Source of the DNA: a virus
Length of the DNA: 64,000 nt
Direction: 5' to 3' (one strand)
IMG/VR virus record: IMGVR_UViG_3300033148_006102
Location: 64,001-128,000 of that record
Shown here piece after piece: positions 2,343 through 20,703 of the stretch. Position 1 is the first letter of the stretch; each line of letters begins with the position of its first letter. A program made the position numbers and the translations under genes. Below the pieces are notes generated by a model. It saw only the letters and a program-made list of their open reading frames with translations, was not told the origin of the DNA and ran no database searches.

Positions 2343-2888
2343 ATGGGAACATCGCAGCATGTTAAAGATTGGCGGGCGCGAACAAAGGCACGGATGGTCG
2401 CGGCAATGGGAGGCGCATGTGTTTGTTGTGGTTACGACACGTACGAGGGAGCGCTGCTTTTTCATCATCGAGATCCGAGCACGAAAGATTTTTCGTTGAG
2501 CGGAGTTCGAATGAATCCGAAGAAGTGGTCACGGATTGTCGAGGAACTGAGAAAATGTGTGCTCGTTTGTTGGAACTGCCATATCGAGTTACATGCGGGC
2601 TTACGAAACATACCTGTAGGTGCGGCGGGCTTTGATGAATCGTTTGCCGATTATCGGGCAGAACAACGGGCGAAACTTTTTGATACGTGTCCTGTTTGTG
2701 GGGATAGAAAACGTAAACGACGGAAGTACTGTTCCATCGCATGTAGCCATGAAAATAAAAAGCGTGTATCTGATGAACAATTACGCGCAATGGCAGAACA
2801 AGGAGCAAACTATTCGCAGATAGGACGCGAGTACGGGATTTCTGGAAATGCTGTGAAGAAACGACTGGAGAAATTAAACGGGGTGTAG
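2343..2888 (+). CDS. HNH endonuclease with C-terminal Zn-ribbon/HTH
   Basis: CVCCGY...LLFHHRDP...KCVLVCWNCHIELH; the stop codon lies inside tRNA-Pro. Confidence 0.8.
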   Translation: MGTSQHVKDWRARTKARMVAAMGGACVCCGYDTYEGALLFHHRDPSTKDFSLSGVRMNPKKWSRIVEELRKCVLVCWNCHIELHAGLRNIPVGAAGFDESFADYRAEQRAKLFDTCPVCGDRKRKRRKYCSIACSHENKKRVSDEQLRAMAEQGANYSQIGREYGISGNAVKKRLEKLNGV

Positions 2889-2953
2889 TTCAGAGGAAGA
2901 ACGCCGTGTTTGGGACGCGGAGGCCGGGATTTCAAAATTCCCCACCCCGACCA
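2879..2953 (+). tRNA. tRNA-Pro(TGG)
   Basis: CGGGGTG/CACCCCG-A-CCA; loop TT-TGG-GA. Confidence 0.92.
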
Positions 2954-2962
2954 CTTGAGGAT

Positions 2963-3040
2963 GCCTAGCGAGGCCGAAGTAGTCGAGGCACTTGGTTGTG
3001 GTCCAAGGGGAAGTGGGCGCAAGTCCCATCGCTAGGCCCA
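2963..3040 (+). tRNA. tRNA-His(GTG)
   Basis: Encoded G-1:C73, CCTAGCG/CGCTAGG, loop TT-GTG-GT, CCA. Confidence 0.9.
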
Positions 3041-3050
3041 GATTGAAAGA

Positions 3051-3124
3051 GCGCCTGTAGTTCAATGGAAGAATGACAGCCTTCCAAGCTGTAGACGAGG
3101 GATCGATACCCTCCAGGCGCTCCA
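3051..3124 (+). tRNA. tRNA-Gly(TCC)
   Basis: GCGCCTG/CAGGCGC-T-CCA; loop CT-TCC-AA. Confidence 0.92.
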
Positions 3125-3158
3125 GCTCTTTGACATCTGAAACGGCCAAACAAAAAAC

Positions 3159-3228
3159 GGGCGTAGATACAGGCTCGATGCCTGTCCTTTCCCGGTTGGG
3201 TAAGGTAGCTTAACGCAAAGCGACGCCC
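3159..3228 (+). ncRNA. Circularly permuted tRNA-like RNA (closed acceptor, no anticodon loop)
   Basis: GGGCGT..ACGCCC outer stem enclosing a T-arm, an acceptor capped by GGTT, TA and a D-arm. Confidence 0.65.
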
Positions 3229-3233
3229 TTTTC

Positions 3234-3307
3234 GCCGCTCTAGCTCAAGGGCAGAGCGCCACTCTCGTAAAGTGGAGATCCCAGTTCGACTCTGGGGAGC
3301 GGCTCCA
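3234..3307 (+). tRNA. tRNA-Thr(CGT)
   Basis: GCCGCTC/GAGCGGC-T-CCA; loop CT-CGT-AA. Confidence 0.92.
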
Positions 3308-3333
3308 AATTTCTTTTACATGAAAGGATAATT

Positions 3334-3522
3334 GTGGATTTGGTGACGAAAGAAGACGTAAACATCGACTTCGCAGAGGAAACAGAATTTCAGCTGCAGC
3401 TACTCGACCACCGCGTTGCGCCTACGTTGGTCGTCAAGCGCGGTGGTGACATCGTCCTGATCAAGATTTCGAAGGCCAAGGCCGAAGAGCTCTTGAAACT
3501 GGACATTACGGTAGAGGGATAG
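3334..3522 (+). CDS. Small hypothetical protein
   Basis: GAAAGGA SD, GTG start; the last base of TAG is +1 of tRNA-Thr(GGT). Confidence 0.65.
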   Translation: MDLVTKEDVNIDFAEETEFQLQLLDHRVAPTLVVKRGGDIVLIKISKAKAEELLKLDITVEG

Positions 3523-3595
3523 CCACTATAGCTCAAGGGAAGAGCACTCGCTTGGTACGCGGGCGATCTCAGTTCGACTCTGAGTAGTGGCTCCA
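3522..3595 (+). tRNA. tRNA-Thr(GGT)
   Basis: GCCACTA/TAGTGGC-T-CCA; loop TT-GGT-AC. Confidence 0.9.
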
Positions 3596-3615
3596 CATCA
3601 TTATGAAAGGGATCG

Positions 3616-4152
3616 ATGATTGAACGTGAGCGGGAAATTGAAGAACGTTTCTTGTTAACACAAATGACCAGCGAAGTTGGCAAAACGATGGCGACGCACA
3701 TAACAGTAGGAGCCATTCAAACGGTCGAACAGCTGAAGGAACAGTTTTGCGAATACGTAGACTCGTGTTATGCAAATTTTCGCTCAAAGATAGGAGTACG
3801 CCAGCGTAGCTCAACGGCAGAGCTTTCGACTTGTAATCGGAAAGACGTCGGTTCGAATCCGACCGCTGGCTCCAAACTTGAAAAGGACGGAGTGGAATAC
3901 AAGGTTGGCGATCGCGTCATCATGGCCGGTCGCGGAATAAACGAGATAGTAGAACTTCCGAATCCGCCCGAAAAGACCACAATCACCCTGCTGTCACCGA
4001 GTGGTCAGGTATGGTGGGCCGGAGTTGAAGACATTGTGCGATTCCCTGAGAAAGAGTATTACGATCAGTTTATAGCAGATTCGGAAAGACTTGATCTTTG
4101 GGGTGTACCCGCTTTGTACAGATGGCGGGACGAAACATATCCGGAAACGTAG
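3616..4152 (+). CDS. Hypothetical ORF reading through tRNA-Thr(TGT); second in-frame SD+GTG at 3892
   Basis: SD GAAAGGG before 3616 and AAAAGGA before 3892; stop TAG equals tRNA-Phe positions 8-10. Confidence 0.55.
   Translation: MIEREREIEERFLLTQMTSEVGKTMATHITVGAIQTVEQLKEQFCEYVDSCYANFRSKIGVRQRSSTAELSTCNRKDVGSNPTAGSKLEKDGVEYKVGDRVIMAGRGINEIVELPNPPEKTTITLLSPSGQVWWAGVEDIVRFPEKEYYDQFIADSERLDLWGVPALYRWRDETYPET
3800..3874 (+). tRNA. tRNA-Thr(TGT)
   Basis: GCCAGCG/CGCTGGC-T-CCA; loop CT-TGT-AA. Confidence 0.93.
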
Positions 4153-4221
4153 CTCAGTTTTGGTAGAGCACCGGCCTGAAGAGTCGGGTTGTCGCCGGTT
4201 CGATTCCGACCGGTTCCACCA
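4143..4221 (+). tRNA. tRNA-Phe(GAA)
   Basis: GGAAACG/CGGTTCC-A-CCA (one mismatch); loop CT-GAA-GA; one T-stem mismatch. Confidence 0.85.
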
Positions 4222-4232
4222 ACTTCCGACAT

Positions 4233-4274
4233 GGACAGTTTTCCCGCTATATTGATGTAGAGGGAAAACTGTCC
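4233..4274. repeat. 13-bp perfect inverted repeat (terminator or promoter hairpin)
   Basis: GGACAGTTTTCCC/GGGAAAACTGTCC with loop GCTATATTGATGTAGA. Confidence 0.7.
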
Positions 4275-4292
4275 TTTGTTCGGGAGAATAAC

Positions 4293-6821
4293 ATGCCTGA
4301 TGCTGATCTCAGCCTGATCCTGAAGGGAAGTCGTGAAGTACATACGGCTTACCAAATCCAGATCATTTACGACGGCTTGAATGCGACACAACAAACTGCT
4401 GCAGCCACGCTGTTGGCAGAATACGGCATAAATGCCACAAATATCACGGCGACGAGTGCGCCGTTGGATGATATCGAACGCGCTCTGCAAACTATGTTGG
4501 CGACATTTATGGGAACTGCAGCTACAGGCTCAGGACCAGGTGTCGCTGACTTGGCGGCCTTGAAAGCGATCATTGCAGGTGATCGTACAGACAAGGACGT
4601 GCGGCTAGTCGAATCAGTAGGGTTAACCTATCGTTTCGATGCTGACAGCATTGTGGATCCTACAACAGATCCTGACATTGAAATTCCGGATGACGTTACG
4701 CATCCAGCCCCAGGTCGCTGGTATCTGGTTGAACTGGATGAAGCTGACGAAATTCTGTACGTCAACACAGCGAGTTGGCTGACGGCCACGCATATGCAAG
4801 CGGCTGTCGACGAATTGGCACCGGTGATGCATTCGCCAGTTGCAGATATTGCTGGATTGACGGCGATTGTCGCAGCTTCGCGTGCAGACAGGATGCTGGC
4901 CTTTGTTGATGATCAGAATCGTTTGTATAGTTTTGATGCTGCGGATACGACAGATCCGACTACGCGCACAGACATGGAAATTCCTGATGACGTGACGCAC
5001 CCAGCGCCAGGTCGTTGGATTCGAATGGCGTATCATGCATCTGAGCATGAAAACGGCGGTGTTGATGAGATCAGTGTTGCCGGTCTTAGTGGCCTCTTAG
5101 CAGATGACCAGAATCCGGTTAATCACGCAACTGATCACCAGCATGGCGGCAGCGATGAAGTCGCAACTGCCACACCTGGCGCCAACGCTATTCCGAAGGC
5201 AGACGCATCTGGCTTGCTTGATGGCTGGATCACACAGGCTTGGGACGCGATCGTCGTGGGCACTAACACGGCGGCTACGGATAAGACCAATATTGATGCG
5301 GCTATCTCAGCTGTATCTGCTGGGTCAGGCGATCGTAAGACCATCCTGTTGATGGGACGGTTTGCACTCGGTGCTAATGTGTTCGCGGCAGCGGATTACA
5401 TTACTTTCAATGCTGAGCAAGCATATTTCCGCAAGACTGCAGACAACGCTGGTACGATTTACTTCACCGGTACTGAAATGGTTATGCTCGGCGGTTTTGT
5501 CGAGAACGCCGGTTCATCGTCTAGCGGTGGTTTCTTTGGTGGTCATAAGTGGGAAGGCGGCTTTGTTCTTAGCTGGCCAGCCGCAACACTTATTTCAACT
5601 TCGCAGACCTATGCGCAGTTATCATACCGCGCACAGAGCGGCCTGCCTGTTTCGATATCTGGGGCGGGTTCACAGATTACCGCGAATTATGTAAACGGCG
5701 CAACAGCACCAACCAATAGTTCTTGGGATGTCGCCGCTTCGTCTGGAACGATCACACTTTCTGGCGATAACGTTAATTATCGTAATGGTGGAGGCGGCCC
5801 AGCTGTTGTGGTTTCAGGCTCGGGATCATACTGGCGTGGTAGAGCAAGTGGCGGTATTACAGTAACAGGTACGTATTCGCATGTTGAGGTACCGAACGGT
5901 GCTGCGACATGTAGCGTTACGCAATCTGGCCAAGAAAGCTTTGTAGACGTTCGAGCATCAACTGGCGCAATAGCGCTGAGTGGTATCAATATCACAACGC
6001 GCATCCAATACACTGGTTCCACAGTGTCATCTTTCACGAATACCGCGTCGGATTCAGATATTTTGGTTCGCATGCGTTACCTCGGTAATGCAGTAAATAT
6101 CGCGTTGGGTACAAGAAACACGTACTCGCTGCTCGTGCGGGATACAGCTGGTGGTACAGCTGATACTCTAACGCTGTTATCAGGTACGGACTGTCCAGAA
6201 GCTAAGATTCAGACAGTTCAGCCGACAGTTGATATCGGTGGCGCATCTTTGACAGGCTGCTCCATGACGGTGATGGCTACTGCAGCAGGCGCAGCGGTAA
6301 CAGCCAAGAATGGCTCAGTCGGTAACACGATTGACATTTATTGCGATACGCAGCCGACAGTCGAGGCAGACGCGGCACTTGAGAACACAATTCGTTGGTA
6401 CGACACTTCTGCCCGCGGTATCCTTCGGATGGCGTGGGAGAAGGGTCGCCTGTACCAGACCAAGGAAGAGCTCATCGACTTTGGTGGTACCGGTGCGAAG
6501 AACACGACTATTCAGGTCGACGCGAACGAATGGTGCGAAGGTGTACCGTTGGTTATCGAAACCATTGTTGCGGGTACAAACCCAGGAGCACCGACACAGG
6601 TTGTACCGACTTGGAATGCTGGCGGTATGACAGATCCAACACCGATTGCAGGTGTTGCGGTCAATACGAAGAGTACAGCAGATCTCTTCGAACAGTCTGC
6701 AGCAGCAGCTACTTTGAATCTTGATCCACAGACCGGCGGTGCAGCCTCTGTGGTTGATGCGACCGGCAAGGTGCGGGTCCGTTTCACAACCATCAGGAAT
6801 CTGGCAATGCCGGACGAATAA
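4293..6821 (+). CDS. Large virion/tail-fibre-like protein with beta-rich C-terminal half
   Basis: 842 aa; duplicated EIPDDVTHPAPGRW module, two HxxxHxxGGxDE motifs, G/S/T-rich beta-strand region. Confidence 0.55.
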   Translation: MPDADLSLILKGSREVHTAYQIQIIYDGLNATQQTAAATLLAEYGINATNITATSAPLDDIERALQTMLATFMGTAATGSGPGVADLAALKAIIAGDRTDKDVRLVESVGLTYRFDADSIVDPTTDPDIEIPDDVTHPAPGRWYLVELDEADEILYVNTASWLTATHMQAAVDELAPVMHSPVADIAGLTAIVAASRADRMLAFVDDQNRLYSFDAADTTDPTTRTDMEIPDDVTHPAPGRWIRMAYHASEHENGGVDEISVAGLSGLLADDQNPVNHATDHQHGGSDEVATATPGANAIPKADASGLLDGWITQAWDAIVVGTNTAATDKTNIDAAISAVSAGSGDRKTILLMGRFALGANVFAAADYITFNAEQAYFRKTADNAGTIYFTGTEMVMLGGFVENAGSSSSGGFFGGHKWEGGFVLSWPAATLISTSQTYAQLSYRAQSGLPVSISGAGSQITANYVNGATAPTNSSWDVAASSGTITLSGDNVNYRNGGGGPAVVVSGSGSYWRGRASGGITVTGTYSHVEVPNGAATCSVTQSGQESFVDVRASTGAIALSGINITTRIQYTGSTVSSFTNTASDSDILVRMRYLGNAVNIALGTRNTYSLLVRDTAGGTADTLTLLSGTDCPEAKIQTVQPTVDIGGASLTGCSMTVMATAAGAAVTAKNGSVGNTIDIYCDTQPTVEADAALENTIRWYDTSARGILRMAWEKGRLYQTKEELIDFGGTGAKNTTIQVDANEWCEGVPLVIETIVAGTNPGAPTQVVPTWNAGGMTDPTPIAGVAVNTKSTADLFEQSAAAATLNLDPQTGGAASVVDATGKVRVRFTTIRNLAMPDE

Positions 6822-7631: not shown

Positions 7632-8021
7632 TTGGCAATAAAACTGAACCAATTTCAAAACGGTCGACAGCGAGAGCATACTGTATCGATTCGCACTATC
7701 ATGGAACGTGCATTGGCGCGGACCGAAGATCAAACGCCTTTTCTAAGGGGTGTGCTGTTGTTAGATAAAGAATGGCGACAGATCTGTACAAAGCTGGACT
7801 ACATTGATGCTGCGCTAGCAGCGGCGGAACGCTACGAAGCTTCACTCAATGATAGCAGTCAAACGGCGGAAGATATGATGTTTGAAGCTTTGCGCGAACG
7901 TCTACCCAGCGATGTTGTCGACATGATGGAGTCGGTCACGCCATTCCGCAAGGATGGCAGTACACCGGCAGTTGAGGCAGTTGAGAAACTGGGAAAGTTT
8001 GTAGACAATGCGAAGCTTTAA
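7632..8021 (+). CDS. Hypothetical protein
   Basis: AAGGAGA SD and TTG start within ORF-track 7599-8021. Confidence 0.6.
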   Translation: MAIKLNQFQNGRQREHTVSIRTIMERALARTEDQTPFLRGVLLLDKEWRQICTKLDYIDAALAAAERYEASLNDSSQTAEDMMFEALRERLPSDVVDMMESVTPFRKDGSTPAVEAVEKLGKFVDNAKL

Positions 8022-8208
8022 GCAATGTGTTGAAGAATACAAACAAAATCATGCCTGTTTTTGCCTATATTGCGGTCACGACGAGCTGATAGTTCAAGAG
8101 CGATCTGGTCCTAAGATCGAGATGAAACAGCTTGTGACGTGCCCCAAGTGCAAGAGGGCCTGGTGGGAATACTGGGGCTTGATCAGTGTTGAAGAAGCGC
8201 TAGCATGA
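8008..8208 (+). CDS. Small Zn-ribbon protein
   Basis: CLYC...CPKC. Confidence 0.6.
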   Translation: MRSFKQCVEEYKQNHACFCLYCGHDELIVQERSGPKIEMKQLVTCPKCKRAWWEYWGLISVEEALA

Positions 8209-8283
8209 GGCCTCGTCGTCTAATGAACAGGACACTACCCTCCGAAGGTAGAGATCCAGGTTTGAGTCCTGGCGGGGCTACCA
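8209..8283 (+). tRNA. tRNA-Arg(CCG)
   Basis: GGCCTCG/CGGGGCT-A-CCA; loop CT-CCG-AA. Confidence 0.9.
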
Positions 8284-8297: not shown

Positions 8298-8783
8298 ATG
8301 AAGATTTTGCCCAAGCCATATGATTGGGATATATGCATGCTTGAGATGGCGGCCACACTCGCCAAGATGAGCAAAGATACGTCGACACAGGTTGGCGCAC
8401 TGCTTGTCAGCCCTGATAAGCGGCGCATGTCAGGAGGCTACAACGGCTTTCCGACGAACATTCCCGATTATGAGGACTGGTGGAATCGACGCGAAGACAC
8501 AGAAGGTGAATTTACCAAGTACGAGCTGGTGGTCCATGCTGAGGAAAACGCCATCTGCCAAGCGCGTACGGATCTCACGGGCTGGACGCTGTACTGCACG
8601 CATCAACCATGTCTTCGGTGTTCAAGGTTGATAGCTTCGCAAGGTATTCGACGTGTTGTATGGGATGCGGGTCATGAGGTGACGCGCATGGATCTACAAA
8701 CAGAGAAGGCGCTGAAGCTTTTCGAAGAAGCGGGAATCGAAGTACACACGATTCATTACCGGGATACATATAAGGGGGCGTAG
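8298..8783 (+). CDS. dCMP deaminase family protein
   Basis: SKDTSTQVGA, GYNGFP, VHAEENAI, PCLRC motifs. Confidence 0.92.
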   Translation: MKILPKPYDWDICMLEMAATLAKMSKDTSTQVGALLVSPDKRRMSGGYNGFPTNIPDYEDWWNRREDTEGEFTKYELVVHAEENAICQARTDLTGWTLYCTHQPCLRCSRLIASQGIRRVVWDAGHEVTRMDLQTEKALKLFEEAGIEVHTIHYRDTYKGA

Positions 8784-8851
8784 CTCAACGGAATTAGAGC
8801 GCTGGTCTACGGAACCAGAGGTTGAAGGTTCGAATCCTTCCGTCCCTACCA
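8774..8851 (+). tRNA. tRNA-Arg(ACG)
   Basis: GGGGGCG/CGTCCCT-A-CCA; loop CT-ACG-GA. Confidence 0.92.
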
Positions 8852-8984
8852 TCTTGAAAGGAAACTGTGGAGAAGCAGGAAGTTGTAATCAAAGTAGTTG
8901 AAAAGGGTGGCAGCGGAATAAGTATCCTGTCGCTGCTTGGCATCGCCGGCGTACTGCCAAGCAGTATGGTTGGTATCAGTAATT

Positions 8985-9058
8985 GGCCACGTCGTCTAAT
9001 GGAAGGATACCAGGCTTTCAACCTGGAGACCGGGGATCGATACCCCGCGTGGCTACCA
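8985..9058 (+). tRNA. tRNA-Glu(TTC)
   Basis: GGCCACG/CGTGGCT-A-CCA; loop CT-TTC-AA; embedded in frame in ORF 8867-9262. Confidence 0.9.
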
Positions 9059-9076: not shown

Positions 9077-9262
9077 ATGGCAGAAGAATATGTGACATCG
9101 TTGGTGGACAAACCATCGATTGATATTACTGCACCAAAGGCAGTACAGATCGATATTCGTGAGGATGGGAAGGTGCTCTGGATCAACGTGGACGGGATCT
9201 GTCGTTTACGTTGTTGTCAGATTGAGCTCCTTGAAGTTGAAGACAGGCGAACGAAGAAATGA
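9077..9262 (+). CDS. Small hypothetical protein (in frame with an upstream GTG at 8867)
   Basis: AAGGAGAAGGA SD before ATG 9077. Confidence 0.6.
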   Translation: MAEEYVTSLVDKPSIDITAPKAVQIDIREDGKVLWINVDGICRLRCCQIELLEVEDRRTKK

Positions 9263-9567
9263 AGATGTATATTTTGGTCAAGGAGGATGTGCGCTTAGGC
9301 CTTGCCGCCGTAAGTATCGCGCACGCTGCCATGGCCGCCTATTTGGCATACAAAGACACGCCAGAAGTAAAAGAATGGCTCGCCGGTCCTTTCTACAAAG
9401 TTGTGTGTAAAGTGACTGCGCAAGAGATGGAGCAGGCTAAGGACGCCGGGGACTATGTCAGGATCACAGATTCAAACTATGCGGATGGGACTGTGATAAT
9501 TGCACTGGCATTCAAGCCGCGGGAAGAATACCCGAAGGCGTTCAAATACTTCAAGCTTTTCAAATAG
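9259..9567 (+). CDS. Peptidyl-tRNA hydrolase 2 (PTH2)-like protein
   Basis: MYILVKEDV...AVSIAHAA...FYKVVCKV...ALAFKPR pattern of PTH2-fold proteins. Confidence 0.75.
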   Translation: MKMYILVKEDVRLGLAAVSIAHAAMAAYLAYKDTPEVKEWLAGPFYKVVCKVTAQEMEQAKDAGDYVRITDSNYADGTVIIALAFKPREEYPKAFKYFKLFK

Positions 9568-9642
9568 GTCGCGTGGCGCAACAGGGAGCGCATCAGCATG
9601 ACACGCTGAAGGTTAGAGGTTCGATTCCTCTCGTGGCCACCA
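9567..9642 (+). tRNA. tRNA-Val(GAC)
   Basis: GGTCGCG/CGTGGCC-A-CCA; loop AT-GAC-AC. Confidence 0.88.
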
Positions 9643-9656: not shown

Positions 9657-9905
9657 ATGCTAGAACCACAGAAGACAAAACACATCAAAGAATACCCAGT
9701 CACCATAGAAACCATATTTCCTTTGGATACGTTTGACGTGCGATGGACAGAAGGTCCGGCGACGCAGCGCGTAAAGATTCGACAGGTAGAAACAGGAATC
9801 TATTTGATGTGCGACAACGATGTGCGCCCGCTCGAGGTCACAATTCCTTGGGAACGATTCTTCAATAAAATTGAAGAGCTCGTATTATCGAGCAAGCCGA
9901 TATAA
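9657..9905 (+). CDS. Hypothetical protein
   Basis: GAGGA SD and ATG 9657; ORF-track start 9573 lies inside the tRNA. Confidence 0.6.
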   Translation: MLEPQKTKHIKEYPVTIETIFPLDTFDVRWTEGPATQRVKIRQVETGIYLMCDNDVRPLEVTIPWERFFNKIEELVLSSKPI

Positions 9906-9981
9906 GCCCGCATAGCTCAACTGGGAGAGCGCCTGACTTACATTCAGGAGGTTGGGAGTTCGAAACTCTCTGTGGGCACCA
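9906..9981 (+). tRNA. tRNA-Val(TAC)
   Basis: GCCCGCA/TGTGGGC-A-CCA; loop CT-TAC-AT. Confidence 0.9.
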
Positions 9982-12127: not shown

Positions 12128-12637
12128 GTGATGCACCTGTGTTTTACTCGGCGCATGAAAAAGTTCAAGAGCCCAGCTAAGCACCAAACACCGTTATATC
12201 GAGCACGATGTGCGTATCGTGATATGTCACGTCGTTGCGGCAATCCTAACGGAAAGAATCCAGCATATGTTGATGTTGAACTCCGAATGACGATGGAAGC
12301 ATGGCTGGAGTGGTCGCTGCCGCATTACGAAAAGTTTATAGCTGAAAACCCCGGTGTGTCGCCAAGCGTATCGCGTAACGGCGATGTAGGTCATTATGAA
12401 ATCGGGAACCTGGAAATCGTGTCTTTACAAGAAAATCGTCGACGACAGAAGACGAAGTTGTTGGTGCGACCAAACGGTACGAAGCTTTGTTGTACGTGCA
12501 GGGTGGTGCAGCCAAAAGAAAATTTTTGTAAGAACAGAACACGCGCAGATGGCTTGAATCACGAGTGTCGTAGCTGTCGCGCCATTCGTGTGCGTGAATG
12601 GCGCGCAAAGAAAAAGAAGGCTCCTACTCCTAGATAG
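12128..12637 (+). CDS. HNH-type homing endonuclease
   Basis: MSRRCGNP...SVSRNGDVGHYEIGNLEIV plus C-terminal CCTC..CRSC; stop lies in the tRNA-Lys D-loop. Confidence 0.7.
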   Translation: MMHLCFTRRMKKFKSPAKHQTPLYRARCAYRDMSRRCGNPNGKNPAYVDVELRMTMEAWLEWSLPHYEKFIAENPGVSPSVSRNGDVGHYEIGNLEIVSLQENRRRQKTKLLVRPNGTKLCCTCRVVQPKENFCKNRTRADGLNHECRSCRAIRVREWRAKKKKAPTPR

Positions 12638-12693
12638 CGAGGAACCTGTCTCTTAAACAGGGAAGCGGCGTGCAAGTCGTCGAGGAGCCACCA
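12619..12693 (+). tRNA. tRNA-Lys(CTT)
   Basis: GGCTCCT/AGGAGCC-A-CCA; loop CT-CTT-AA; T-loop TGCAAGT. Confidence 0.85.
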
Positions 12694-12701
12694 ACATATA
12701 A

Positions 12702-12776
12702 GGGCTCATAGTTCAATTCGTAGAACAGCTGACTCATAATCAGCCGATCTCGGTGCAAATCCGGGTGAGCCCACCA
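12702..12776 (+). tRNA. tRNA-Met(CAT), elongator-like
   Basis: GGGCTCA/TGAGCCC-A-CCA; loop CT-CAT-AA. Confidence 0.88.
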
Positions 12777-12798: not shown

Positions 12799-13263
12799 AT
12801 GTCATATACATACGAAACTCTTGTTGAAGTTCAATGTTATAAGTGTGGGATTCGCTTTGGACTGATCCAGAGCTATTACGATCTGCGGAAGCGTGATAAG
12901 AAAGAGTGGTATTGTCCGAACGGCCATACACAGTATTTCATAGGTGAAACTGCTGAACAACGGTTACGCCGTGAATTGCGCGCGGAGGAAGCAAAACACA
13001 GGAAAACCAAGCAAACACTGAAGACACAGCAGACAAGGACTGCAAATTATAGGGAAGACAACGACGCTAAGGATCGCCAGATGATTTCCTTGCGTGGCAC
13101 GATAACCATGTTGCGCCGATACATGAAGGATGGTAAATGTCCGTGTTGTCACAAGACAGTTGATGATTTACCGGGGCATCTAAAAGAAAAGCATCCCCAT
13201 TTCATGGCGCCGGTGCAACCCAAGAAAGAGAAGGAATGCCAAAACCAGAACAAGAACGAGTGA
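12799..13263 (+). CDS. Cys/His-rich coiled-coil hypothetical protein
   Basis: GAAAGGA SD; CYKC, CPNGH, CPCC...HLKEKH. Confidence 0.7.
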   Translation: MSYTYETLVEVQCYKCGIRFGLIQSYYDLRKRDKKEWYCPNGHTQYFIGETAEQRLRRELRAEEAKHRKTKQTLKTQQTRTANYREDNDAKDRQMISLRGTITMLRRYMKDGKCPCCHKTVDDLPGHLKEKHPHFMAPVQPKKEKECQNQNKNE

Positions 13264-13508
13264 ACCTCAAACTGGAGCTGACAGGCCTGCGGGAGTGCGA
13301 TGCGGTCAGTATTGTCAAGCTGATGTGCATGATGAACTACTTCGGCTCGGCCGGTTGCTCGCGAACCATCAAGCTGTTCGTGGACGGCGACGGCGCATTT
13401 AATTTCGGTCGCGTGCTGGTCGACGGCGAGGAAGTATCACGCAAGGAGCGGCTGAAGCTGATTGGGGAATATGACAAGGAAGATGGGCTGGACTTCGCGT
13501 TCGATTAG
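13236..13508 (+). CDS. Hypothetical protein
   Basis: AAGGA SD; last base of the stop is +1 of tRNA-Lys(TTT). Confidence 0.65.
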   Translation: MPKPEQERVNLKLELTGLRECDAVSIVKLMCMMNYFGSAGCSRTIKLFVDGDGAFNFGRVLVDGEEVSRKERLKLIGEYDKEDGLDFAFD

Positions 13509-13584
13509 GGAGCGTGGCGCAATGGTATAGCGCATCGGTCTTTTAAACCGAGGGTTGTGGGTTCGAGTCCCACCGCTCCCACCA
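13508..13584 (+). tRNA. tRNA-Lys(TTT)
   Basis: GGGAGCG/CGCTCCC-A-CCA; loop CT-TTT-AA. Confidence 0.93.
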
Positions 13585-13585
13585 T

Positions 13586-13660
13586 TGGCGCGTAGTGTAA
13601 TTGGGAACACGGCAGACTCTGGATCTGCAGTAGAGGGTTCGATTCCTTCCGCGCCAACCA
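13586..13660 (+). tRNA. tRNA-Gln(CTG)
   Basis: TGGCGCG/CGCGCCA-A-CCA; loop CT-CTG-GA. Confidence 0.92.
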
Positions 13661-13695
13661 AATTTATGGCCGTTCAGATGGACGGAGAAAGGAAG

Positions 13696-14289
13696 ATGAT
13701 GAAGCGGAACGTACTATTGTTAAACAAGAATTGGCAGCCGATCGCGTCGGCGCCGTGGAGAACTGCGGTAAAGATTGTGATTCGCGGCCATGGGTACGTC
13801 GTGGATCATCGAACTTTTGAACGCTTGGATTGGGTAGCTTGGGTCGCTACGCATTCGGCCGGTATCGATGCGGATGTAGACCGGAGGAGATACATCCAAA
13901 CTGGTGTACGGTTAATCGAATGTCCGAAAGTAGTGACCCTTGCCCGATTCGGCGGTTTACCCAAGCGTCGCCTGGCGTTCAGCCGTAACGGCATTTATGC
14001 CAGAGACAGCCATCGTGGTAAGCCGCAGTGTCAGTACTGCGGATCTTACCCAACTGGTAGAAGCCTGACGTTGGATCACGTTATCCCGCGGGCGCAGGGC
14101 GGAAAGACGCAGTGGGAGAATTGTGTTGTGGCCTGCGAAAAATGCAATATGCTCAAAGCAGATCGCACACCAGAACAAGCAGGCATGCGCCTGTTGAGTA
14201 AGCCTAAACGGCCAGAAGTTTTCCAAGCGTTGCTTGGCGAACTCGAACCGGAATGGGAAGTGTTTGTGAAGCAAGGAAATACAGCATGA
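13696..14289 (+). CDS. HNH endonuclease (McrA/HNH_5-like)
   Basis: VLLLNKNWQPI...CQYCG...LTLDHVIPRAQGG...NCVVACEKCNMLKADRTPEQAGM. Confidence 0.9.
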   Translation: MMKRNVLLLNKNWQPIASAPWRTAVKIVIRGHGYVVDHRTFERLDWVAWVATHSAGIDADVDRRRYIQTGVRLIECPKVVTLARFGGLPKRRLAFSRNGIYARDSHRGKPQCQYCGSYPTGRSLTLDHVIPRAQGGKTQWENCVVACEKCNMLKADRTPEQAGMRLLSKPKRPEVFQALLGELEPEWEVFVKQGNTA

Positions 14290-14471
14290 ATGGGACTGAG
14301 CTGAGAGAATACATACGGAAGCAGGTCCGCAGGTTCCATTACATGAGCCTGTGGGATCTTGTCAGTGAACGAAGTAGCCTACCCAGAAATGGAATGCTAC
14401 ATCGAATCCTGGGACACGTGATTGATTACCGACTCTTGGAGTCGGCGCGACAAAGAGCAGGTACAACGTAG
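14286..14471 (+). CDS. Small hypothetical protein
   Basis: ATGA overlap with the HNH stop; TAG overlaps tRNA-Trp +1/+2. Confidence 0.5.
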   Translation: MNGTELREYIRKQVRRFHYMSLWDLVSERSSLPRNGMLHRILGHVIDYRLLESARQRAGTT

Positions 14472-14541
14472 GTCGGGCGCTGGGTCGCAGGACGGTCTCC
14501 AAAATCGTCCTTGGTGGGTTCGATTCCCACCCGGCCTGCCA
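14470..14541 (+). tRNA. tRNA-Trp(CCA), minimal D-arm
   Basis: AGGTCGG/CCGGCCT-G-CCA; 7-bp anticodon stem; loop CT-CCA-AA. Confidence 0.82.
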
Positions 14542-14759: not shown

Positions 14760-14818
14760 GACTGTGTAAGGGCAATCTTATGTGGGATGGCCCGTAATGT
14801 AACGGCTAGCACATGGAA

Positions 14819-14893
14819 TGCGGGATCGTTCAATTGGTAGGACACCTGACTTTGAATCAGGCAATGAGAGTTCAAATCTCTCTCCCGCAGCCA
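14819..14893 (+). tRNA. tRNA-Gln(TTG)
   Basis: TGCGGGA/TCCCGCA-G-CCA; loop CT-TTG-AA. Confidence 0.92.
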
Positions 14894-14907
14894 AAAAAGG
14901 AATAGCG

Positions 14908-15399
14908 ATGAAAAAACACAGTCATGGGAAATACGTGATGTTAGTGTTTTCCGATGGTACACGTGTTCTAGAACATCGCTATGTGATGGCGCGACATATT
15001 GGTCGGAAACTACATAGTGATGAAGTGGTGCATCATCGGAACGGAGACGGAAAAGATAATCGTCTACGCAATTTACGGTTATGGTCTTCGAACAGTGAAC
15101 ATACACAACATCACGCGCGGGAGCGTAGTCGAAGTGTCACATGCATGACCTGTGGTAGGTCCTTTGTGTTGAGCCTGGGCGAGTATACGCGCAGGAAACG
15201 TCGAGTAAAACATGGTTTGTACTGCTCACGCTCGTGTGCAGCGCGTTCACCATATACGCGGCGCGCGGAAAGCAAAATTGGTGATTACATACAGCTGTGT
15301 AAAGATTTACCAGGTATATCGATCAATGAAGCAGCAAGTATTCTGAGGGTTTGTCGTAGGACCATATGTAATTGGCGACGACGCCTGAAGAACAATTAA
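14908..15399 (+). CDS. HNH homing endonuclease (HNH_3-like) with C-terminal HTH
   Basis: EHRYVMARHIGRKL...VVHHRNGDGKDNRLRNL. Confidence 0.88.
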   Translation: MKKHSHGKYVMLVFSDGTRVLEHRYVMARHIGRKLHSDEVVHHRNGDGKDNRLRNLRLWSSNSEHTQHHARERSRSVTCMTCGRSFVLSLGEYTRRKRRVKHGLYCSRSCAARSPYTRRAESKIGDYIQLCKDLPGISINEAASILRVCRRTICNWRRRLKNN

Positions 15400-15435: not shown

Positions 15436-17031
15436 ATGGCGAACAAGTCAATTTTCAGCACCCAGCGGGGGCCTGTACATCGACAGTACGGGGAAAGTGT
15501 GAAGACCGTTGATACGGTCAATGAGGCAGGCGGAGAGGCTTACAGCTTCACAGCAAAGTCTGCATTGGCGCAGTTGGCATCGACGGGCTGCTTTGGCAAC
15601 ACGTTCTATGTGAATGCCAAGAGTCAGCTTGACAAGGTTCAGGAATTGTTGCCACAGGTTGACAGCGAGTTTTTGGCCAAGCTGGCCGTATATGCCCGCC
15701 AGAAGGGTTACATGAAGGACATGCCGGCGCTCATGCTCGCGTATCTCTTCGCGCATGCGAAGGATTCTGCGACAGTTGGCGCGTATTTCAAGGCAGCGTT
15801 CCCGGAGGTCATGGACAATGGCCGTATGTTGCGAAACTTTGTCCAGATCATCCGTAGTGGCGTCACCGGGCGTAAGTCGTTCGGTACGGCCGGCAAGCGT
15901 GTGATCCAGGACTGGTTGACTAACCGGTCATACTGGAAGTTGTTCGGCGAAGCAGTTGGCAATGATCCGTCGATGTGTGATGTGCTCAAGATGACGCGGC
16001 CGCATCCAAAGGATGATGAGCAGCGTGCATTGTTTGGTTACATCACTGATGCGAAGGAAGGTTGGGACCGCGAGGCTCTGCCGGACTTCGTGAAGGAATT
16101 TGAGGCCTTCAAGCAGGATCAGACCAAACCTGTACCGAACGTTTCATTCGAACGGTTGTCTGCCCTTCCGCTTGGAAAGGAACACTGGATCGAGATCGCC
16201 AAGAAGGCGACTTGGTTCCAGACGCTCAAATCTCTTAACACGTACAAGCGTCATGGGGCGCTTGAGCATTCTGATGTTGTCGACATTGTCGCTGAGCGTT
16301 TGGCAGATCTTGAGTTGGTCAAGAAGGCCAAGGTATTTCCGTACCAGATCTTTGTGGCTTACAAGGCCGCGAATGACCTGCCACGGAAGATTACTAATGC
16401 GCTGCAGGATGCGCTGGAGCACGCGCTCCGAAACATCCCATTTTATGAGGGCCAGGTTTACATCTTCCCAGATGTTTCCGGCTCAATGTTATGGGGTAAC
16501 TTGACAGGTCATTCGCAGAGTTCAATTCGTTGTATTGACGTGGCGGCATTGATCACCGCGGCGATCATGAAGACGAACTATCTGGCGGAAGTACTTCCGT
16601 TTGATACACGCGTGCATGATGCGAAGTCATTGAATCATCGTGATTCAGTAGTACGCAACGCAGAGATCTTGTCGCGCTTTGGCGGTGGCGGAACGTACTG
16701 CGAGCTTCCGCTGCGTGAACTGAACGACCGTAACGCGAAGGGCGACCTGTTAATCTACGTCTCGGATAACGAGTCGTGGGTCGGCGCCGGCTATCGCAGC
16801 CATACAGGCTTGCTCAATGAGTGGGCGAAGTTCAAGCAGCGTAACCGGCAGGCCAAGATGGTCTGCATTGATCTGCAGGCTAACACCAGCACGCAGGCAA
16901 CGGATACGCCGGACATCTTGAATGTCGGTGGATTCTCTGATCAGGTGTTCAACGTTATCGACGCCTTTTTGAAGGGTGGATCTGATAAGGAACATTGGGT
17001 CAAGGAAATCGAGAAAGTTTATCTAGGATAG
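15436..17031 (+). CDS. rsr: Ro60/TROVE RNA-binding protein (Rsr)
   Basis: NEAGGEAY, LAQLASTGCFGNTFY, YARQKGYMKDMP, MLRNFVQIIRSG, vWA DVSGSM, SDNESW, LNVGGFSDQVF. Confidence 0.95.
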   Translation: MANKSIFSTQRGPVHRQYGESVKTVDTVNEAGGEAYSFTAKSALAQLASTGCFGNTFYVNAKSQLDKVQELLPQVDSEFLAKLAVYARQKGYMKDMPALMLAYLFAHAKDSATVGAYFKAAFPEVMDNGRMLRNFVQIIRSGVTGRKSFGTAGKRVIQDWLTNRSYWKLFGEAVGNDPSMCDVLKMTRPHPKDDEQRALFGYITDAKEGWDREALPDFVKEFEAFKQDQTKPVPNVSFERLSALPLGKEHWIEIAKKATWFQTLKSLNTYKRHGALEHSDVVDIVAERLADLELVKKAKVFPYQIFVAYKAANDLPRKITNALQDALEHALRNIPFYEGQVYIFPDVSGSMLWGNLTGHSQSSIRCIDVAALITAAIMKTNYLAEVLPFDTRVHDAKSLNHRDSVVRNAEILSRFGGGGTYCELPLRELNDRNAKGDLLIYVSDNESWVGAGYRSHTGLLNEWAKFKQRNRQAKMVCIDLQANTSTQATDTPDILNVGGFSDQVFNVIDAFLKGGSDKEHWVKEIEKVYLG

Positions 17032-17037: not shown

Positions 17038-17177
17038 GGGGCGAATGCGGACGGGATTACATTGATTCATAATCCGTTGGTCGGAGGTTCGAATCCTTCC
17101 CTCGCCACCACTATGGCGAGGTAGCTCAGTCTGGTAGAGCAGCGTATATGTCAAATCTCGTCGATTCTCGTCGCCCC
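17038..17177 (+). ncRNA. yrlA: YrlA-like Y RNA with permuted tRNA module
   Basis: GGGGCGA/TCGCCCC closing stem; T-arm, acceptor 3' strand with ACCA, acceptor 5' strand, D-arm in permuted order; directly after rsr. Confidence 0.85.
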
Positions 17178-17196
17178 ATCCTTTTCCTTCTTATTT

Positions 17197-17353: not shown

Positions 17354-17362
17354 TTTTCTTTT

Positions 17363-17759
17363 GGGGGTGAGTAGGATCGACTGGTCGTTACTGACTGGAA
17401 GAAGCGTGTCGCAGTTGACCAACACCTGCGTTATCAAGATGGTCGCAAACCCAGATGGCAACATCCATCACATGAGCGATTACGCTCGTCCGCAGCTTCA
17501 GGCTGCATAAAGGACAGCTCCGACCAGGTAGCTACCACACCTGGCTGCGGGATACCAACCCAAGGTGAGAAACCAAACAGAGTTAGGTCGGTGAACATGC
17601 CGCAGAGGGGATTCACCATCGAAGTTACGGCGGATAAGGCGTGACCGGGCTGTCGTCGGCTCAGAGGATCGCTCGAAAACATAGATGACGACTACACACG
17701 TAGAAGTGCCGGAATGATCGATACAGCACACGGGGTGCGACTCCCCGTCACCTCCACCA
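17363..17759 (+). ncRNA. ssrA: tmRNA; tag (A)ANPDGNIHHMSDYARPQLQAA
   Basis: GGGGGTG/CACCTCC-A-CCA with G3:U70, GGATCGAC 5' motif, PK1-like pairings, tag ORF 17445-17510 ending AA. Confidence 0.93.
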
Positions 17760-17765
17760 GATTTT

Positions 17766-17873: not shown

Positions 17874-17907
17874 CCATATTGAGAGCGCACGGGGGTTCCG
17901 TGCACGC

Positions 17908-17956: not shown

Positions 17957-17966
17957 ACGAAGAGGG

Positions 17967-17994
17967 TTGACATCCGATTTATCGAATGTACCTT
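17967..17994 (+). promoter_or_regulatory. Sigma70-like promoter
   Basis: TTGACA-16-TACCTT right after the terminator. Confidence 0.65.
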
Positions 17995-18144
17995 GAGATG
18001 TTCGCGGAGCTTAGCAGGCTTGCACTGCGATTTCGGTTTCTCTGTTCCGACCTGGCACGCTATGCGTGATTAAAAACAGAGTGGTGGACTGGGACAGTGG
18101 ATGGAGGACACCAAATCCGCCGGAAGCCTGTCACGCCCTCGTCT

Positions 18145-18176
18145 TGATCCGGGACGCTAACTTGGATCAGCTTTTT
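18145..18176 (+). terminator. Terminator-like hairpin ending a structured leader
   Basis: TGATCCGGG/CTTGGATCA followed by GCTTTTT. Confidence 0.55.
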
Positions 18177-18184
18177 GAATTTGT

Positions 18185-18262
18185 TGCGGGGTGGAGCAGT
18201 CTAGTCAGCTCGCAAGGCTCATAACCTTGAGGTCGTCAGTTCAAATCCTTCCCCCGCCACCA
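18185..18262 (+). tRNA. Initiator-like tRNA-Met(CAT) with degenerate T-stem
   Basis: TGCGGGG/CCCCGCC-A-CCA with 1:72 mismatch, fMet-type D-arm; T-stem GTCAG/CCTTC has 3 mismatches. Confidence 0.7.
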
Positions 18263-18275
18263 ATTTGGAGAAAAG

Positions 18276-18341
18276 ATGAAGACGTTACTGAGTTACTCGT
18301 CCTTGTATCTGTGCCTCTCAGGCGCGGAGGTTGGCGTGTAA
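18276..18341 (+). CDS. Putative attenuator leader peptide MKTLLSYSSLYLCLSGAEVGV
   Basis: GGAG SD; 21 codons followed by a terminator. Confidence 0.55.
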   Translation: MKTLLSYSSLYLCLSGAEVGV

Positions 18342-18366
18342 CTGGATCTTCATCACCTACCGGTCC

Positions 18367-18401
18367 CAGAAACCCGCCAGCACAACCTGGCGGGTTTTCT
18401 G
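18367..18401 (+). terminator. Intrinsic terminator
   Basis: CAGAAACCCGCCAG/CTGGCGGGTTTTCTG. Confidence 0.8.
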
Positions 18402-18433
18402 TTGAGCTCTTTGACATTTGTGACGGAACTAAT

Positions 18434-18523
18434 GGTCGGTGTTCCCCATGGCGGTCTGTAAAACCGTTGTCGTTAAATATTTGGGGTAGTAGACGAATGG
18501 TCCAATTCCATTACCGACCACCA
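18434..18523 (+). tRNA. tRNA-Tyr(GTA), no D-stem, long variable region
   Basis: GGTCGGT/ACCGACC-A-CCA; loop CT-GTA-AA; T-arm AATGG-TCCAATT-CCATT. Confidence 0.78.
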
Positions 18524-18540
18524 TTTCTTGAAAGGAAAAC

Positions 18541-19029
18541 ATGGGAAGAGAAGTACGAATGGTTCCACCCAACTGGAAGCATCCAATAGGCGATCGTGGA
18601 TACCTACAACCAATGCACGATGAGAACTTCGAAGAAGCACTTGCGGAGTGGAAGAACGGTCAGGCTGCATGGGAAGCTGGCACGCACGAAGATTTCGCAG
18701 AATATGGTGAAGACACCTCCTGGGAAGATTGGGCCGGCGAAGAGCCAGAGCCTGAATACTATCGGCCATGGAAAGCCGAAGAAGCCACGTGGTATCAGCT
18801 CTGGGAGACGGTTAGCGAAGGTACGCCGGTAACACCACCTTTTGCAACAAAGGAAGAGCTCGCGGACTACCTAGTCAATGTCGGCGAAGACTTCGGCCGG
18901 CGACAGACATGGCCGCGCGAGGCCGCTGATAACATGATGCGAGAAGAATGGGCGCCTTCGTTCATTGCTCGAGACGGCGTGATAATGGAGCCTAAGGATC
19001 CTGCTTTCTTTTCGGGAATGAAGAAATAA
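18541..19029 (+). CDS. Hypothetical protein
   Basis: GAAAGGA SD; 162 aa, Trp/acidic-rich. Confidence 0.75.
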   Translation: MGREVRMVPPNWKHPIGDRGYLQPMHDENFEEALAEWKNGQAAWEAGTHEDFAEYGEDTSWEDWAGEEPEPEYYRPWKAEEATWYQLWETVSEGTPVTPPFATKEELADYLVNVGEDFGRRQTWPREAADNMMREEWAPSFIARDGVIMEPKDPAFFSGMKK

Positions 19030-19032
19030 TAA

Positions 19033-19109
19033 GCCTCCGTAGGCGAATTGGGATAGCCGCTTGACTTAGGATCAAGTGTTTGTGAGTTCGACTTTCACCG
19101 GAGGTACCA
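19033..19109 (+). tRNA. tRNA-Leu(TAG), short variable loop
   Basis: GCCTCCG/CGGAGGT-A-CCA; loop CT-TAG-GA. Confidence 0.88.
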
Positions 19110-19114
19110 ATATT

Positions 19115-19236
19115 GAAGAGTACGGCGACGCAGCGAACTGCGGACGGGGTAGGCGGGTTGCTAGCACTTGGCCTGCACGGGCGGAATAAATCGAAAGACG
19201 CCGTGAGCAGAGGTAATTGAACTGCCCGTACTCTTC
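19115..19236 (+). ncRNA. Unknown multi-hairpin structured RNA
   Basis: 11-bp closing stem GAAGAGTACGG/CCGTACTCTTC and four internal hairpins; flanked by tRNAs. Confidence 0.6.
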
Positions 19237-19244
19237 TTCATTTT

Positions 19245-19321
19245 GGCAGCGTAGGCGAATTGGGATAGCCGCCGTACTCAAAATGCGGTGTTTGTGGGTT
19301 CGACTCCCACCGCTGCTACCA
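19245..19321 (+). tRNA. tRNA-Leu(CAA), short variable loop
   Basis: GGCAGCG/CGCTGCT-A-CCA; loop CT-CAA-AA. Confidence 0.88.
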
Positions 19322-19330
19322 CATTCAACT

Positions 19331-19413
19331 GGCTGGATGGCGGAACTGGTAGACGCGCACGGTTGAGGGCCGTGTTCCCAGGAGTGAGGGTTCGAATCCC
19401 TCTCCAGCCACCA
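19331..19413 (+). tRNA. tRNA-Leu(GAG)
   Basis: GGCTGGA/TCCAGCC-A-CCA; loop TT-GAG-GG; longer variable region. Confidence 0.88.
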
Positions 19414-19423
19414 GTTTGACGGA

Positions 19424-19500
19424 GCCTCCGTAGCCCAACTGGGAGAGGCACTTGGTTTAAGCCCAAGTCAGTGTCGGTTCGAATCCGACCGGAGGTACCA
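19424..19500 (+). tRNA. tRNA-Leu(TAA), short variable loop
   Basis: GCCTCCG/CGGAGGT-A-CCA; loop TT-TAA-GC. Confidence 0.85.
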
Positions 19501-19501
19501 A

Positions 19502-19589
19502 GGAGGTATGGCTGAGTGGAAAAGCTCCCGGTTGCTAACCGGTGGACAGGGTAACACCTGCGCAGGTTCGAATCCTGCTACCTCCGCCA
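19502..19589 (+). tRNA. tRNA-Ser(GCT)
   Basis: GGAGGTA/TACCTCC-G-CCA; long V-arm; loop TT-GCT-AA. Confidence 0.9.
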
Positions 19590-19608
19590 ATTTTCTTAAA
19601 GGAGAAAA

Positions 19609-19980
19609 GTGAAACGATATAAGCTGAACCTATCAACAAGATTAGTCGGCACGCTAAATATAGAAGCCGAATCAAAAGAAGAGGCCCTGGAAAAGGCAAA
19701 CGTACGAAGTGATAACAGTAATATCGAATGGTTGAATCACGACCAGGCAGCTGAGATCACCGGTGTTGACTGTCTGGGCGAGGCCACCATCCGCGAATAC
19801 ACCTTCACGGTTAAGCGACAGCTTCAAGGTCAATGTGAAGTAGAGGCGGCTAATGAAGACGAGGCCCGCCGAAAGCTCGACAGTATCATGGAGCATAGTG
19901 ATGGTGACATCGAATGGGATGATGATGGCTATGACATCGAAGATGTTGAAATTGAGGAATGGGAAGCTGACGAGGAGTAA
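19609..19980 (+). CDS. Acidic protein with an internally duplicated domain
   Basis: AAAGGAG SD; two copies of (R/K)Y....V/IEAxxxEEA....IEW. Confidence 0.7.
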   Translation: MKRYKLNLSTRLVGTLNIEAESKEEALEKANVRSDNSNIEWLNHDQAAEITGVDCLGEATIREYTFTVKRQLQGQCEVEAANEDEARRKLDSIMEHSDGDIEWDDDGYDIEDVEIEEWEADEE

Positions 19981-19981
19981 A

Positions 19982-20479
19982 ATGTCGGCAAAATGTAAAA
20001 CACCAAACAAAATAGATCTCAAGAAGCTCGATCTTTATCGAGTCAAATTTGAATGGAATGGTGAGACAGTTTACGGTCTTGTCGATTTGTACGATAGAGA
20101 CTCTGATGAATACGCCGAACGTGGCTTAGTACTTGTGGATCATTGTGTGCTGAGGACACGATATGCGCTACCGCCAAGTAAACTGACACCAATGAAATGT
20201 TCTTTTGAACCTGATGATGAATTTGACCAATATGTTGAGCAGCAGGCCAAAGAGGCGCAAGAGCTCCATAAATCGCTGCCGAAGGACAAGCTCTGTGTTG
20301 GCCATATGTTTTCAATCGGTGTGGGCGATGGTTATGCGTCTTATGTGGTAACAAAGGTATTCAAGAAGAATTGCGATATTGAATGGCGCGGCTTCTGTGT
20401 GGATCGTTGGACGGACCATCACTTCGGATGGGGCGGCCGCTTCCCGATCGATGAGATCATGCGGTACGTGGGACCATAG
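19982..20479 (+). CDS. Hypothetical protein
   Basis: ATG right after the previous stop, within ORF-track 19853-20479. Confidence 0.7.
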   Translation: MSAKCKTPNKIDLKKLDLYRVKFEWNGETVYGLVDLYDRDSDEYAERGLVLVDHCVLRTRYALPPSKLTPMKCSFEPDDEFDQYVEQQAKEAQELHKSLPKDKLCVGHMFSIGVGDGYASYVVTKVFKKNCDIEWRGFCVDRWTDHHFGWGGRFPIDEIMRYVGP

Positions 20480-20481
20480 CT

Positions 20482-20703
20482 TTGACGATGTACATACGCG
20501 AGTCCGCGGATGAATATAGGCCGATCTCAGATGAGGAATTCGATGAGATCAACCGCAAGTGTGATACTGTTTCAGGTGATGCAATTTGTGAAGTATGTGG
20601 AAAACCATATCGTGATCACCCTACGTTGAAGATATACCAGGATCGACACACAGCGTGGTGGTTTCCGAAGATCCTTTGCAACGGGCGCTATGGTCATACG
20701 TAG
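20482..20703 (+). CDS. Small Cys-containing protein
   Basis: CEVCGKPY..H..C; last base of the stop is +1 of tRNA-Ser(TGA). Confidence 0.6.
   Translation: MTMYIRESADEYRPISDEEFDEINRKCDTVSGDAICEVCGKPYRDHPTLKIYQDRHTAWWFPKILCNGRYGHT

Follow-up and report, generated by a model that had tools for sequence, protein, structure and literature searches.

Protein-gene stop codons overlapping the next tRNA in a phage island that also encodes tmRNA and a PTH2-type hydrolase

The question raised by this locus is why so many of its protein genes end inside the tRNA that follows them. The locus is a tRNA island of the virus recorded as IMGVR_UViG_3300033148_006102, in which tRNA genes are interspersed with protein-coding open reading frames (ORFs), a transfer-messenger RNA (tmRNA) and a gene for a PTH2-type peptidyl-tRNA hydrolase. 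The source is a complete virus record of 195,108 bp with direct terminal repeats, and the window analyzed here is the whole stretch of 64,000 nucleotides (nt) that corresponds to its bases 64001-128000; coordinates are those of the window. The + strand carries every gene up to around 149.7 kb of the genome. An earlier sequence-only reading had proposed that RNase P, by cutting just before the first base of each tRNA (+1), deprives the upstream mRNAs of a complete stop, and that this works as an off-switch or timer served by tmRNA and PTH2, with simple compaction as the alternative. As set out below, the junctions are probably better explained by an extreme packing, in which the borrowed stops would be read on the unprocessed precursor and the stop-less mRNAs would be a tolerated by-product, with no device tied to tmRNA.

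Stop codons at the gene-to-tRNA junctions

ARAGORN called 28 tRNAs between positions 2879 and 20969 of the window, the CCA end being encoded in 28/28, and a tRNA-Lys(CUU) called at a relaxed threshold brings the total to 29 in an island of around 18-19 kb. Fourteen junctions have an ORF before the tRNA. Their overlaps between stop and tRNA (in nt, negative values being gaps) are, in order, +10, +1, +10, 0, +10, +1, 0, -9, +19, +1, +2, -59, -3 and +1. Nine stops thus overlap the next tRNA, all of them TAG, and each of the nine coordinates listed in the sequence-only reading was found to be correct. Three coincide with T8-A9-G10 of the tRNA itself (Pro, Phe and Arg-ACG); four are split as TA/G, with the G at +1 and the slash at the tRNA 5' end (Thr-GGU, Val-GAC, Lys-UUU and Ser-UGA); one is split as T/AG (Trp), and the last one lies in the D-loop of tRNA-Lys(CUU). 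This is the situation of a gene stop inside a valid tRNA as defined by Hudson et al. 2014, with eight of the tRNAs being canonical and high-scoring and tRNA-Lys(CUU) non-canonical. Two sets of cases can be added to the nine: three ORFs that stop 0-3 nt before a tRNA (8208/8209, 9905/9906 and 19032/19033) and two coding-like segments (3616-3799 and 8867-8984) that run stop-less into one. The ORFs and segments concerned are listed below; all the p-values in this work are post hoc, because the window was singled out as striking.

2343..2888, + strand: HNH endonuclease; TAG at 2886-2888 is T8-A9-G10 of tRNA-Pro (2879-2953), a 10-nt overlap; PHROG 35854, E=1.6e-31, aligned to residue 177 of 181.
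3334..3522, + strand: 62-aa ORF; TA/G, the G being +1 of tRNA-Thr(GGU) (3522-3595); coding likelihood ratio 291.
3616..3799, + strand: 61-codon coding-like segment; enters tRNA-Thr(UGU) (3800-3874) without a stop, with the frame open through the tRNA to the next ORF; codon score p=0.011 against the null.
3892..4152, + strand: 86-aa ORF; TAG is T8-A9-G10 of tRNA-Phe (4143-4221); frame open from 3616; likelihood ratio 9.
8008..8208, + strand: 66-aa ORF with CxxC motifs; TGA abuts tRNA-Arg(CCG) (8209-8283); codon score weak.
8298..8783, + strand: dCMP deaminase; TAG is T8-A9-G10 of tRNA-Arg(ACG) (8774-8851); Pfam PF00383, E=6e-20; PHROG 174, E=9e-44.
8867..8984, + strand: 39-codon coding-like segment with a ribosome-binding site upstream; enters tRNA-Glu(UUC) (8985-9058) without a stop, with the frame open through the tRNA; p=0.007.
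9259..9567, + strand: PTH2-type peptidyl-tRNA hydrolase; TA/G, the G being +1 of tRNA-Val(GAC) (9567-9642); Pfam PF01981.
9657..9905, + strand: 82-aa ORF; TAA abuts tRNA-Val(UAC) (9906-9981); likelihood ratio 17.
12128..12637, + strand: HNH / endonuclease VII-like gene; TAG at 12635-12637 in the D-loop of tRNA-Lys(CUU) (12619-12694), a 19-nt overlap; PHROG matches.
13236..13508, + strand: 90-aa orphan ORF; TA/G, the G being +1 of tRNA-Lys(UUU) (13508-13584); likelihood ratio 51; ORF also called in the protein collection.
14253..14471, + strand: 72-codon ORF, probably no gene; T/AG on tRNA-Trp (14470-14541); codon score equal to the non-coding null.
18541..19029, + strand: 162-aa ORF; double stop TAATAA ends at 19032, adjoining tRNA-Leu(UAG) (19033-19109).
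20488..20703, + strand: 71-aa ORF with a CxxC motif, also delimited as 20482-20703; TA/G, the G being +1 of tRNA-Ser(UGA) (20703-20789); likelihood ratio 1.9.

T8-A9-G10 reads TAG in 14 of the 28 tRNAs, invariably closing one of the three frames, and the overlaps could be an artefact of spurious open frames running into the TAG built into the tRNA. Two ORFs would suit this explanation, the one ending at tRNA-Trp (14253-14471), which looks non-coding (likelihood ratio about 0) and is probably not a gene, and the one ending at tRNA-Ser, for which the codon evidence is ambiguous. However, family matches in Pfam or PHROG extend to the C-terminus in four others (the HNH gene at 2343-2888, the dCMP deaminase, PTH2 and the HNH gene at 12128-12637), and three more (3334-3522, 3892-4152 and 13236-13508) show strongly phage-like codon use, typical of the phage's own genes. 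Seven of the nine overlapping ORFs are in this way credible genes on sequence grounds, and the two HNH nucleases that the sequence-only reading had placed among them are backed by their PHROG matches. In addition, the TA/G stops draw on bases upstream of the tRNA. For seven or more of the nine ORFs the artefact is already ruled out, and as a general explanation we regard it as very improbable.

The PTH2 gene shows in addition that a composite stop is used. In an alignment its final residue is identical in position to that of 11 homologues, supporting that TA/G is its natural stop. The reading frame of the stops points in the same direction. Stops ending at +1, +10 and +19 share one frame, which the tRNA itself closes when T8-A9-G10 is present. 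Three of the four frame-matched tRNAs with this triplet use it as the stop, and the three without it (Val-GAC, Lys-UUU and Ser-UGA) all have TA at -2/-1 (3/3), in such a way that the proteins before them would otherwise extend by around 11 or more codons; this association between TA/G and a missing T8-A9-G10 involves only four versus four tRNAs and is not significant alone. On this pattern, the stop used is the first one available in the precursor.

The leaders of the tRNAs also accommodate stop triplets, because they are rich in A and T (65-84% at positions -5 to -1, compared with a background of 49%). The hexamer ACATAT is located exactly at -8 to -3 of three tRNAs, at 4135-4140 (Phe), 8766-8771 (Arg-ACG) and 12694-12699 (Met), and Val-UAC is preceded by a partial copy; from the density of the hexamer on the + strand, around 0.01 placements of this kind would be expected. 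In two unrelated ORFs it is translated in one common frame, as Thr-Tyr, and it may be a common tRNA leader or processing motif.

These observations are consistent with the following scheme. The island is an extremely compact array that would probably be co-transcribed as tRNA-mRNA precursors. Spacers would have been lost up to the limit that gene and tRNA tolerate, as at the TAATG and ATGA junctions between genes, and gene ends trimmed until the stop touches or uses the next tRNA, in the forms TAA/, TGA/, TA/G or T8-A9-G10. The composite TAGs would be true stops, recognized while the precursor is still unprocessed, as the exact C-terminus of PTH2 suggests. Selfish HNH nucleases typically lodge against tRNA genes, and HNH genes may have added overlaps by inserting there, as in phage T5 (NC_005859). 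RNase P would then sever the ORF from its stop, and the stop-less upstream RNA, likely a by-product of this cleavage, would be left to ordinary decay and ribosome rescue.

The same geometry admits two other interpretations. In the first one control would run in the reverse direction, with the ribosome that terminates on the acceptor and D arms keeping the tRNA unfolded, so that translation of the upstream ORF delays or gates its maturation by RNase P. Between 11 and 12 of the 14 stops fall in the interval from -3 to +19, where a ribosome engaged in termination necessarily occupies the 5' half of the tRNA, and starts are also close behind the tRNA 3' ends, mostly around 12-25 nt past the CCA of the preceding tRNA and with an AGGA-type ribosome-binding site upstream. 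Geometry is, however, the sole basis for this proposal, and the same footprint argument fits the gaps of 4-10 nt that are common in other phages; we consider it quite unlikely.

The second interpretation is a punctuation of the mitochondrial type, in which RNase P would release mRNAs ending in UA that polyadenylation completes to UAA. The four TA/G junctions and the three complete stops at the last base before a tRNA fit this idea, and so do the short, tRNA-flanked mRNAs with almost no untranslated regions. By contrast, the three +10 cases and the +19 case would end in sense codons, making completion impossible, and no member of the poly(A) polymerase/CCA-adding enzyme family is encoded by the phage. 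Bacterial polyadenylation is, moreover, usually infrequent and destabilising. This explanation seems to us most improbable.

Regarding the tRNA at the +19 junction, tRNA-Lys(CUU) (12619-12694) adopts a cloverleaf fold in which the T-loop, TGCAAGT, is unusual; this tRNA was missed by ARAGORN with default settings and by Rfam even at E<=1. A similar T-loop, TGCAAAT, is found in tRNA-Met at 12702. Two other relaxed-threshold calls of ARAGORN were not accepted as tRNAs: the one at 18449-18523, whose fold is unconvincing, and the one at 2201-2285, upstream of the first HNH gene, which forms a cloverleaf with the anticodon GUU and an extended variable arm but lacks the CCA end.

Overlap frequency and the connection with tmRNA

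The junctions were compared with 206 junctions from 76 other phage tRNA arrays subjected to the same mechanical procedure (longest ORF, minimum of 50-70 aa), which introduces some noise in the comparator calls; GenBank annotation was used for T5 and Bxz1. Overlaps are much more frequent in this island, with 9/14 against 41/206 (20%) in the comparators (Fisher p=7e-4), and 14 of those 41 stop at +10. The TA/G form was found at 4/14 junctions and at 0/206 in the comparators (p=1e-5), and stops between -3 and +2 at 8/14 and 26/206, respectively (p=2e-4).

Within the genome itself, the overlap is not exclusive to tRNAs. Of its same-strand gene-to-gene junctions, according to our own gene calls, 92/228 (40%) overlap, including 27 four-base overlaps of the ATGA type and 32 of one base (24 TAATG and 8 TGATG), and the 9/14 proportion at tRNAs is not significantly different (p=0.096).

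Several data weigh against packing as a sufficient cause. The comparator phages are equally compact from gene to gene (30-44% overlaps) yet only around 20% of their tRNA junctions overlap, and in a distant relative, IMGVR_UViG_3300020577_008743, the overlaps are 1/13, with five junctions at -6 (typically TAA followed by exactly 6 nt). With similar compaction and fewer tRNA overlaps elsewhere, packing alone does not explain 9/14, nor the TA/G form at 4/14. A high use of TAG may contribute to the excess, as this codon represents 27% of the stops here (66/242 called genes) and 5-14% in five comparator phages. Compaction, which the sequence-only reading had kept as its alternative, fits the data better than a timer, although alone it leaves the excess over equally compact phages unaccounted for.

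The second component of the problem is the tmRNA, which was identified with Rfam and not called by ARAGORN.

17363-17759, + strand: phage tmRNA; Rfam RF00023, 69.1 bits against a gathering score of 47; full-length, model positions 1-374.

Its score exceeds gathering, its tRNA-like domain ends in CCA, and its tag frame consists of 21 codons, ANPDGNIHHMSDYARPQLQAA (ANPDG...QAA), followed by a UAA stop. Together with the PF01981 match of PTH2, this corroborates that both are encoded in the same island. No SmpB was found in the complete phage genome, so the tmRNA would depend on that of the host. Among other rescue factors, neither an RF-1/ArfB domain nor ArfA is encoded by the phage: PF03889 gave no match, and the small ORFs of the island are acidic (pI 4.4-6.7), whereas ArfA-type factors are small and basic, and are produced exclusively from truncated mRNA.

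An adaptive off-switch or timer would operate as follows: once RNase P has cut off the stop, ribosomes would stall and their products would be tagged by the phage tmRNA together with host SmpB, with PTH2 recycling the dropped peptidyl-tRNA, thereby limiting the interspersed genes, HNH nucleases included. In its favor are the overlap frequency, which is exceptional for a phage array, the presence of tmRNA and PTH2 in one island and the two extra ORF segments that reach a tRNA without a stop; nucleases are also plausible targets of self-limitation. Its premise stands, as RNase P cuts at +1 and the processed upstream RNA would lack a complete stop, but for the adaptive coupling to tmRNA and PTH2 there is co-location only. 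The sequence-only reading had itself named the same overlap rate in arrays without tmRNA as a refutation, and the comparison with other phages counts against the tie, since T5 overlaps at 4/12 annotated junctions with no tmRNA, around 20% of the junctions overlap across the 76 arrays, and the tmRNA-bearing comparator arrays pooled, including Bxz1 with tmRNA and PTH2, gave 0/14 overlaps. Furthermore, PTH2 and dCMP deaminase are among the genes that overlap, with no evident reason for switching them off, the stop of PTH2 is kept at its natural C-terminus and therefore used, and the phage lacks SmpB. An mRNA cut by RNase P would also lose its 3' end to exonucleases with or without a tRNA overlap. 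Taken together, these data make the timer unlikely. Similarly doubtful is a related possibility, a tRNA punctuation turned into an expression device, in which a proper stop would exist only on the precursor and be followed by clearance by tmRNA and PTH2, coupling protein output to the pace of tRNA maturation. Packing with borrowed stops read on the precursor is the explanation that we favor.

Other features of the island

The genes located among the tRNAs are four HNH endonucleases, the dCMP deaminase, PTH2, a VWA/zinc-ribbon protein, a phosphoesterase and around 12 small acidic orphan ORFs. The two HNH genes not listed above (13555-14289 and 14818-15399) start just downstream of tRNA-Gln genes, and their frames open backwards across the entire tRNA, in such a way that mechanical ORF calls are inflated. 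Two further elements lie side by side.

15436-17031, + strand: Ro60/TROVE gene; Pfam PF25045 and PF05731.
17038-17180, + strand: YrlA-like Y RNA, 6 nt 3' of the Ro60/TROVE gene; Rfam RF02553, 64.9 bits, just below the gathering score of 69.

Four spacers between tRNAs, of 97-135 nt, are free of ORFs (2954-3050, 3142-3241, 19110-19244 and 20790-20896). One of them gives a weak YrlA match (24.5 bits), and they could hold small structured RNAs resembling the stable RNAs of T5. The strongest hairpin on the + strand of the island resembling an intrinsic terminator lies at 18144-18170, after the tmRNA and just before the tRNA-Met at 18185, and consists of a 10-bp stem with CTTTTT after it. In shuffled sequence, sites resembling promoters and terminators are at least as common as in the island.

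Close relatives were not detected in collections of phage, IMG/VR and metagenome sequences; megablast against phage records gave no match. A protein of 842 aa encoded in the island (4293-6821) has no Pfam or PHROG match; its sole matches in phage records correspond to a stretch of around 60 residues common to the haloarchaeal tailed viruses HFTV1 and Hardycor1, and when used as a query against viral contigs and metagenome contigs it returned nothing. Sequences related to Ro60, to the helicase and to the VWA protein were not accompanied by a comparable array, except in the distant relative IMGVR_UViG_3300020577_008743, which has 17 dispersed tRNAs and a Ro60-like gene between tRNAs (23% identity), and the homologues of PTH2 were located in bacterial chromosomes or in unrelated phages.

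Comparison with known systems

If the overlaps were functional, they would represent a bacterial-virus counterpart of the mitochondrial tRNA punctuation and give a concrete job to a phage tmRNA and PTH2. Whatever their function, the borrowing of stops is fairly common in phage tRNA arrays, affecting around one junction in five, mostly at T8-A9-G10, so annotators should keep such genes and not drop them as errors. The baseline of around 20% per junction in phage arrays, set against 0.2% per tRNA/tmRNA gene in bacteria, is by itself a minor finding. The phage studied here is the extreme case, and provides nine natural constructs for the competition between translation and RNase P processing on one transcript.

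Non-stop mRNAs arising from overlap between a protein gene and a tRNA gene have been published for bacteria by Hudson, Lau and Williams 2014 (PMC4131195), who found 250 overlaps among 115,660 tRNA/tmRNA genes (0.2%), mostly from few evolutionary events. Their cases are like ours in having an upstream gene on the same strand, a stop inside a valid tRNA and a stop-less mRNA expected on maturation; they differ in that here 9/29 tRNAs of one island are involved, including the one-base TA/G form.

Among phages, T5 also has tRNAs interspersed with small ORFs and HNH genes, and at four of its 12 junctions an annotated gene extends into the tRNA that follows, by 6, 14, 23 and 24 nt, with one more gene abutting; two of the four are the HNH nucleases hegC and hegD. 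Unlike the present island, that of T5 has neither tmRNA nor PTH2, and its overlaps are rarer (4/12) and all within the tRNA body, with no TA/G. Arrays with tmRNA, a PTH2-like hydrolase and HNH genes are known in cluster C mycobacteriophages such as Bxz1 (Morgado and Vicente 2018, PMC5966550), and the island shows the dense tRNA array, tmRNA, PTH2-like hydrolase and HNH endonucleases by which phage array units are recognized in that work. In Bxz1, however, none of the four annotated gene-to-tRNA junctions overlaps, the gaps being of 5-305 nt.

Mitochondrial punctuation shares with the island the spacer-less mRNAs flanked by tRNAs and some incomplete stops (TA) at the RNase P site. It differs in that the +10 and +19 cases are not completable by polyadenylation, and in the bacterial setting of the island, where translation can start on the precursor. 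The concept of overlap, the T5 precedent and the tRNA/tmRNA/PTH2/HNH module were thus already known. To our knowledge, neither so high a density of borrowed stops nor the TA/G form with its one-base overlap has been described before.

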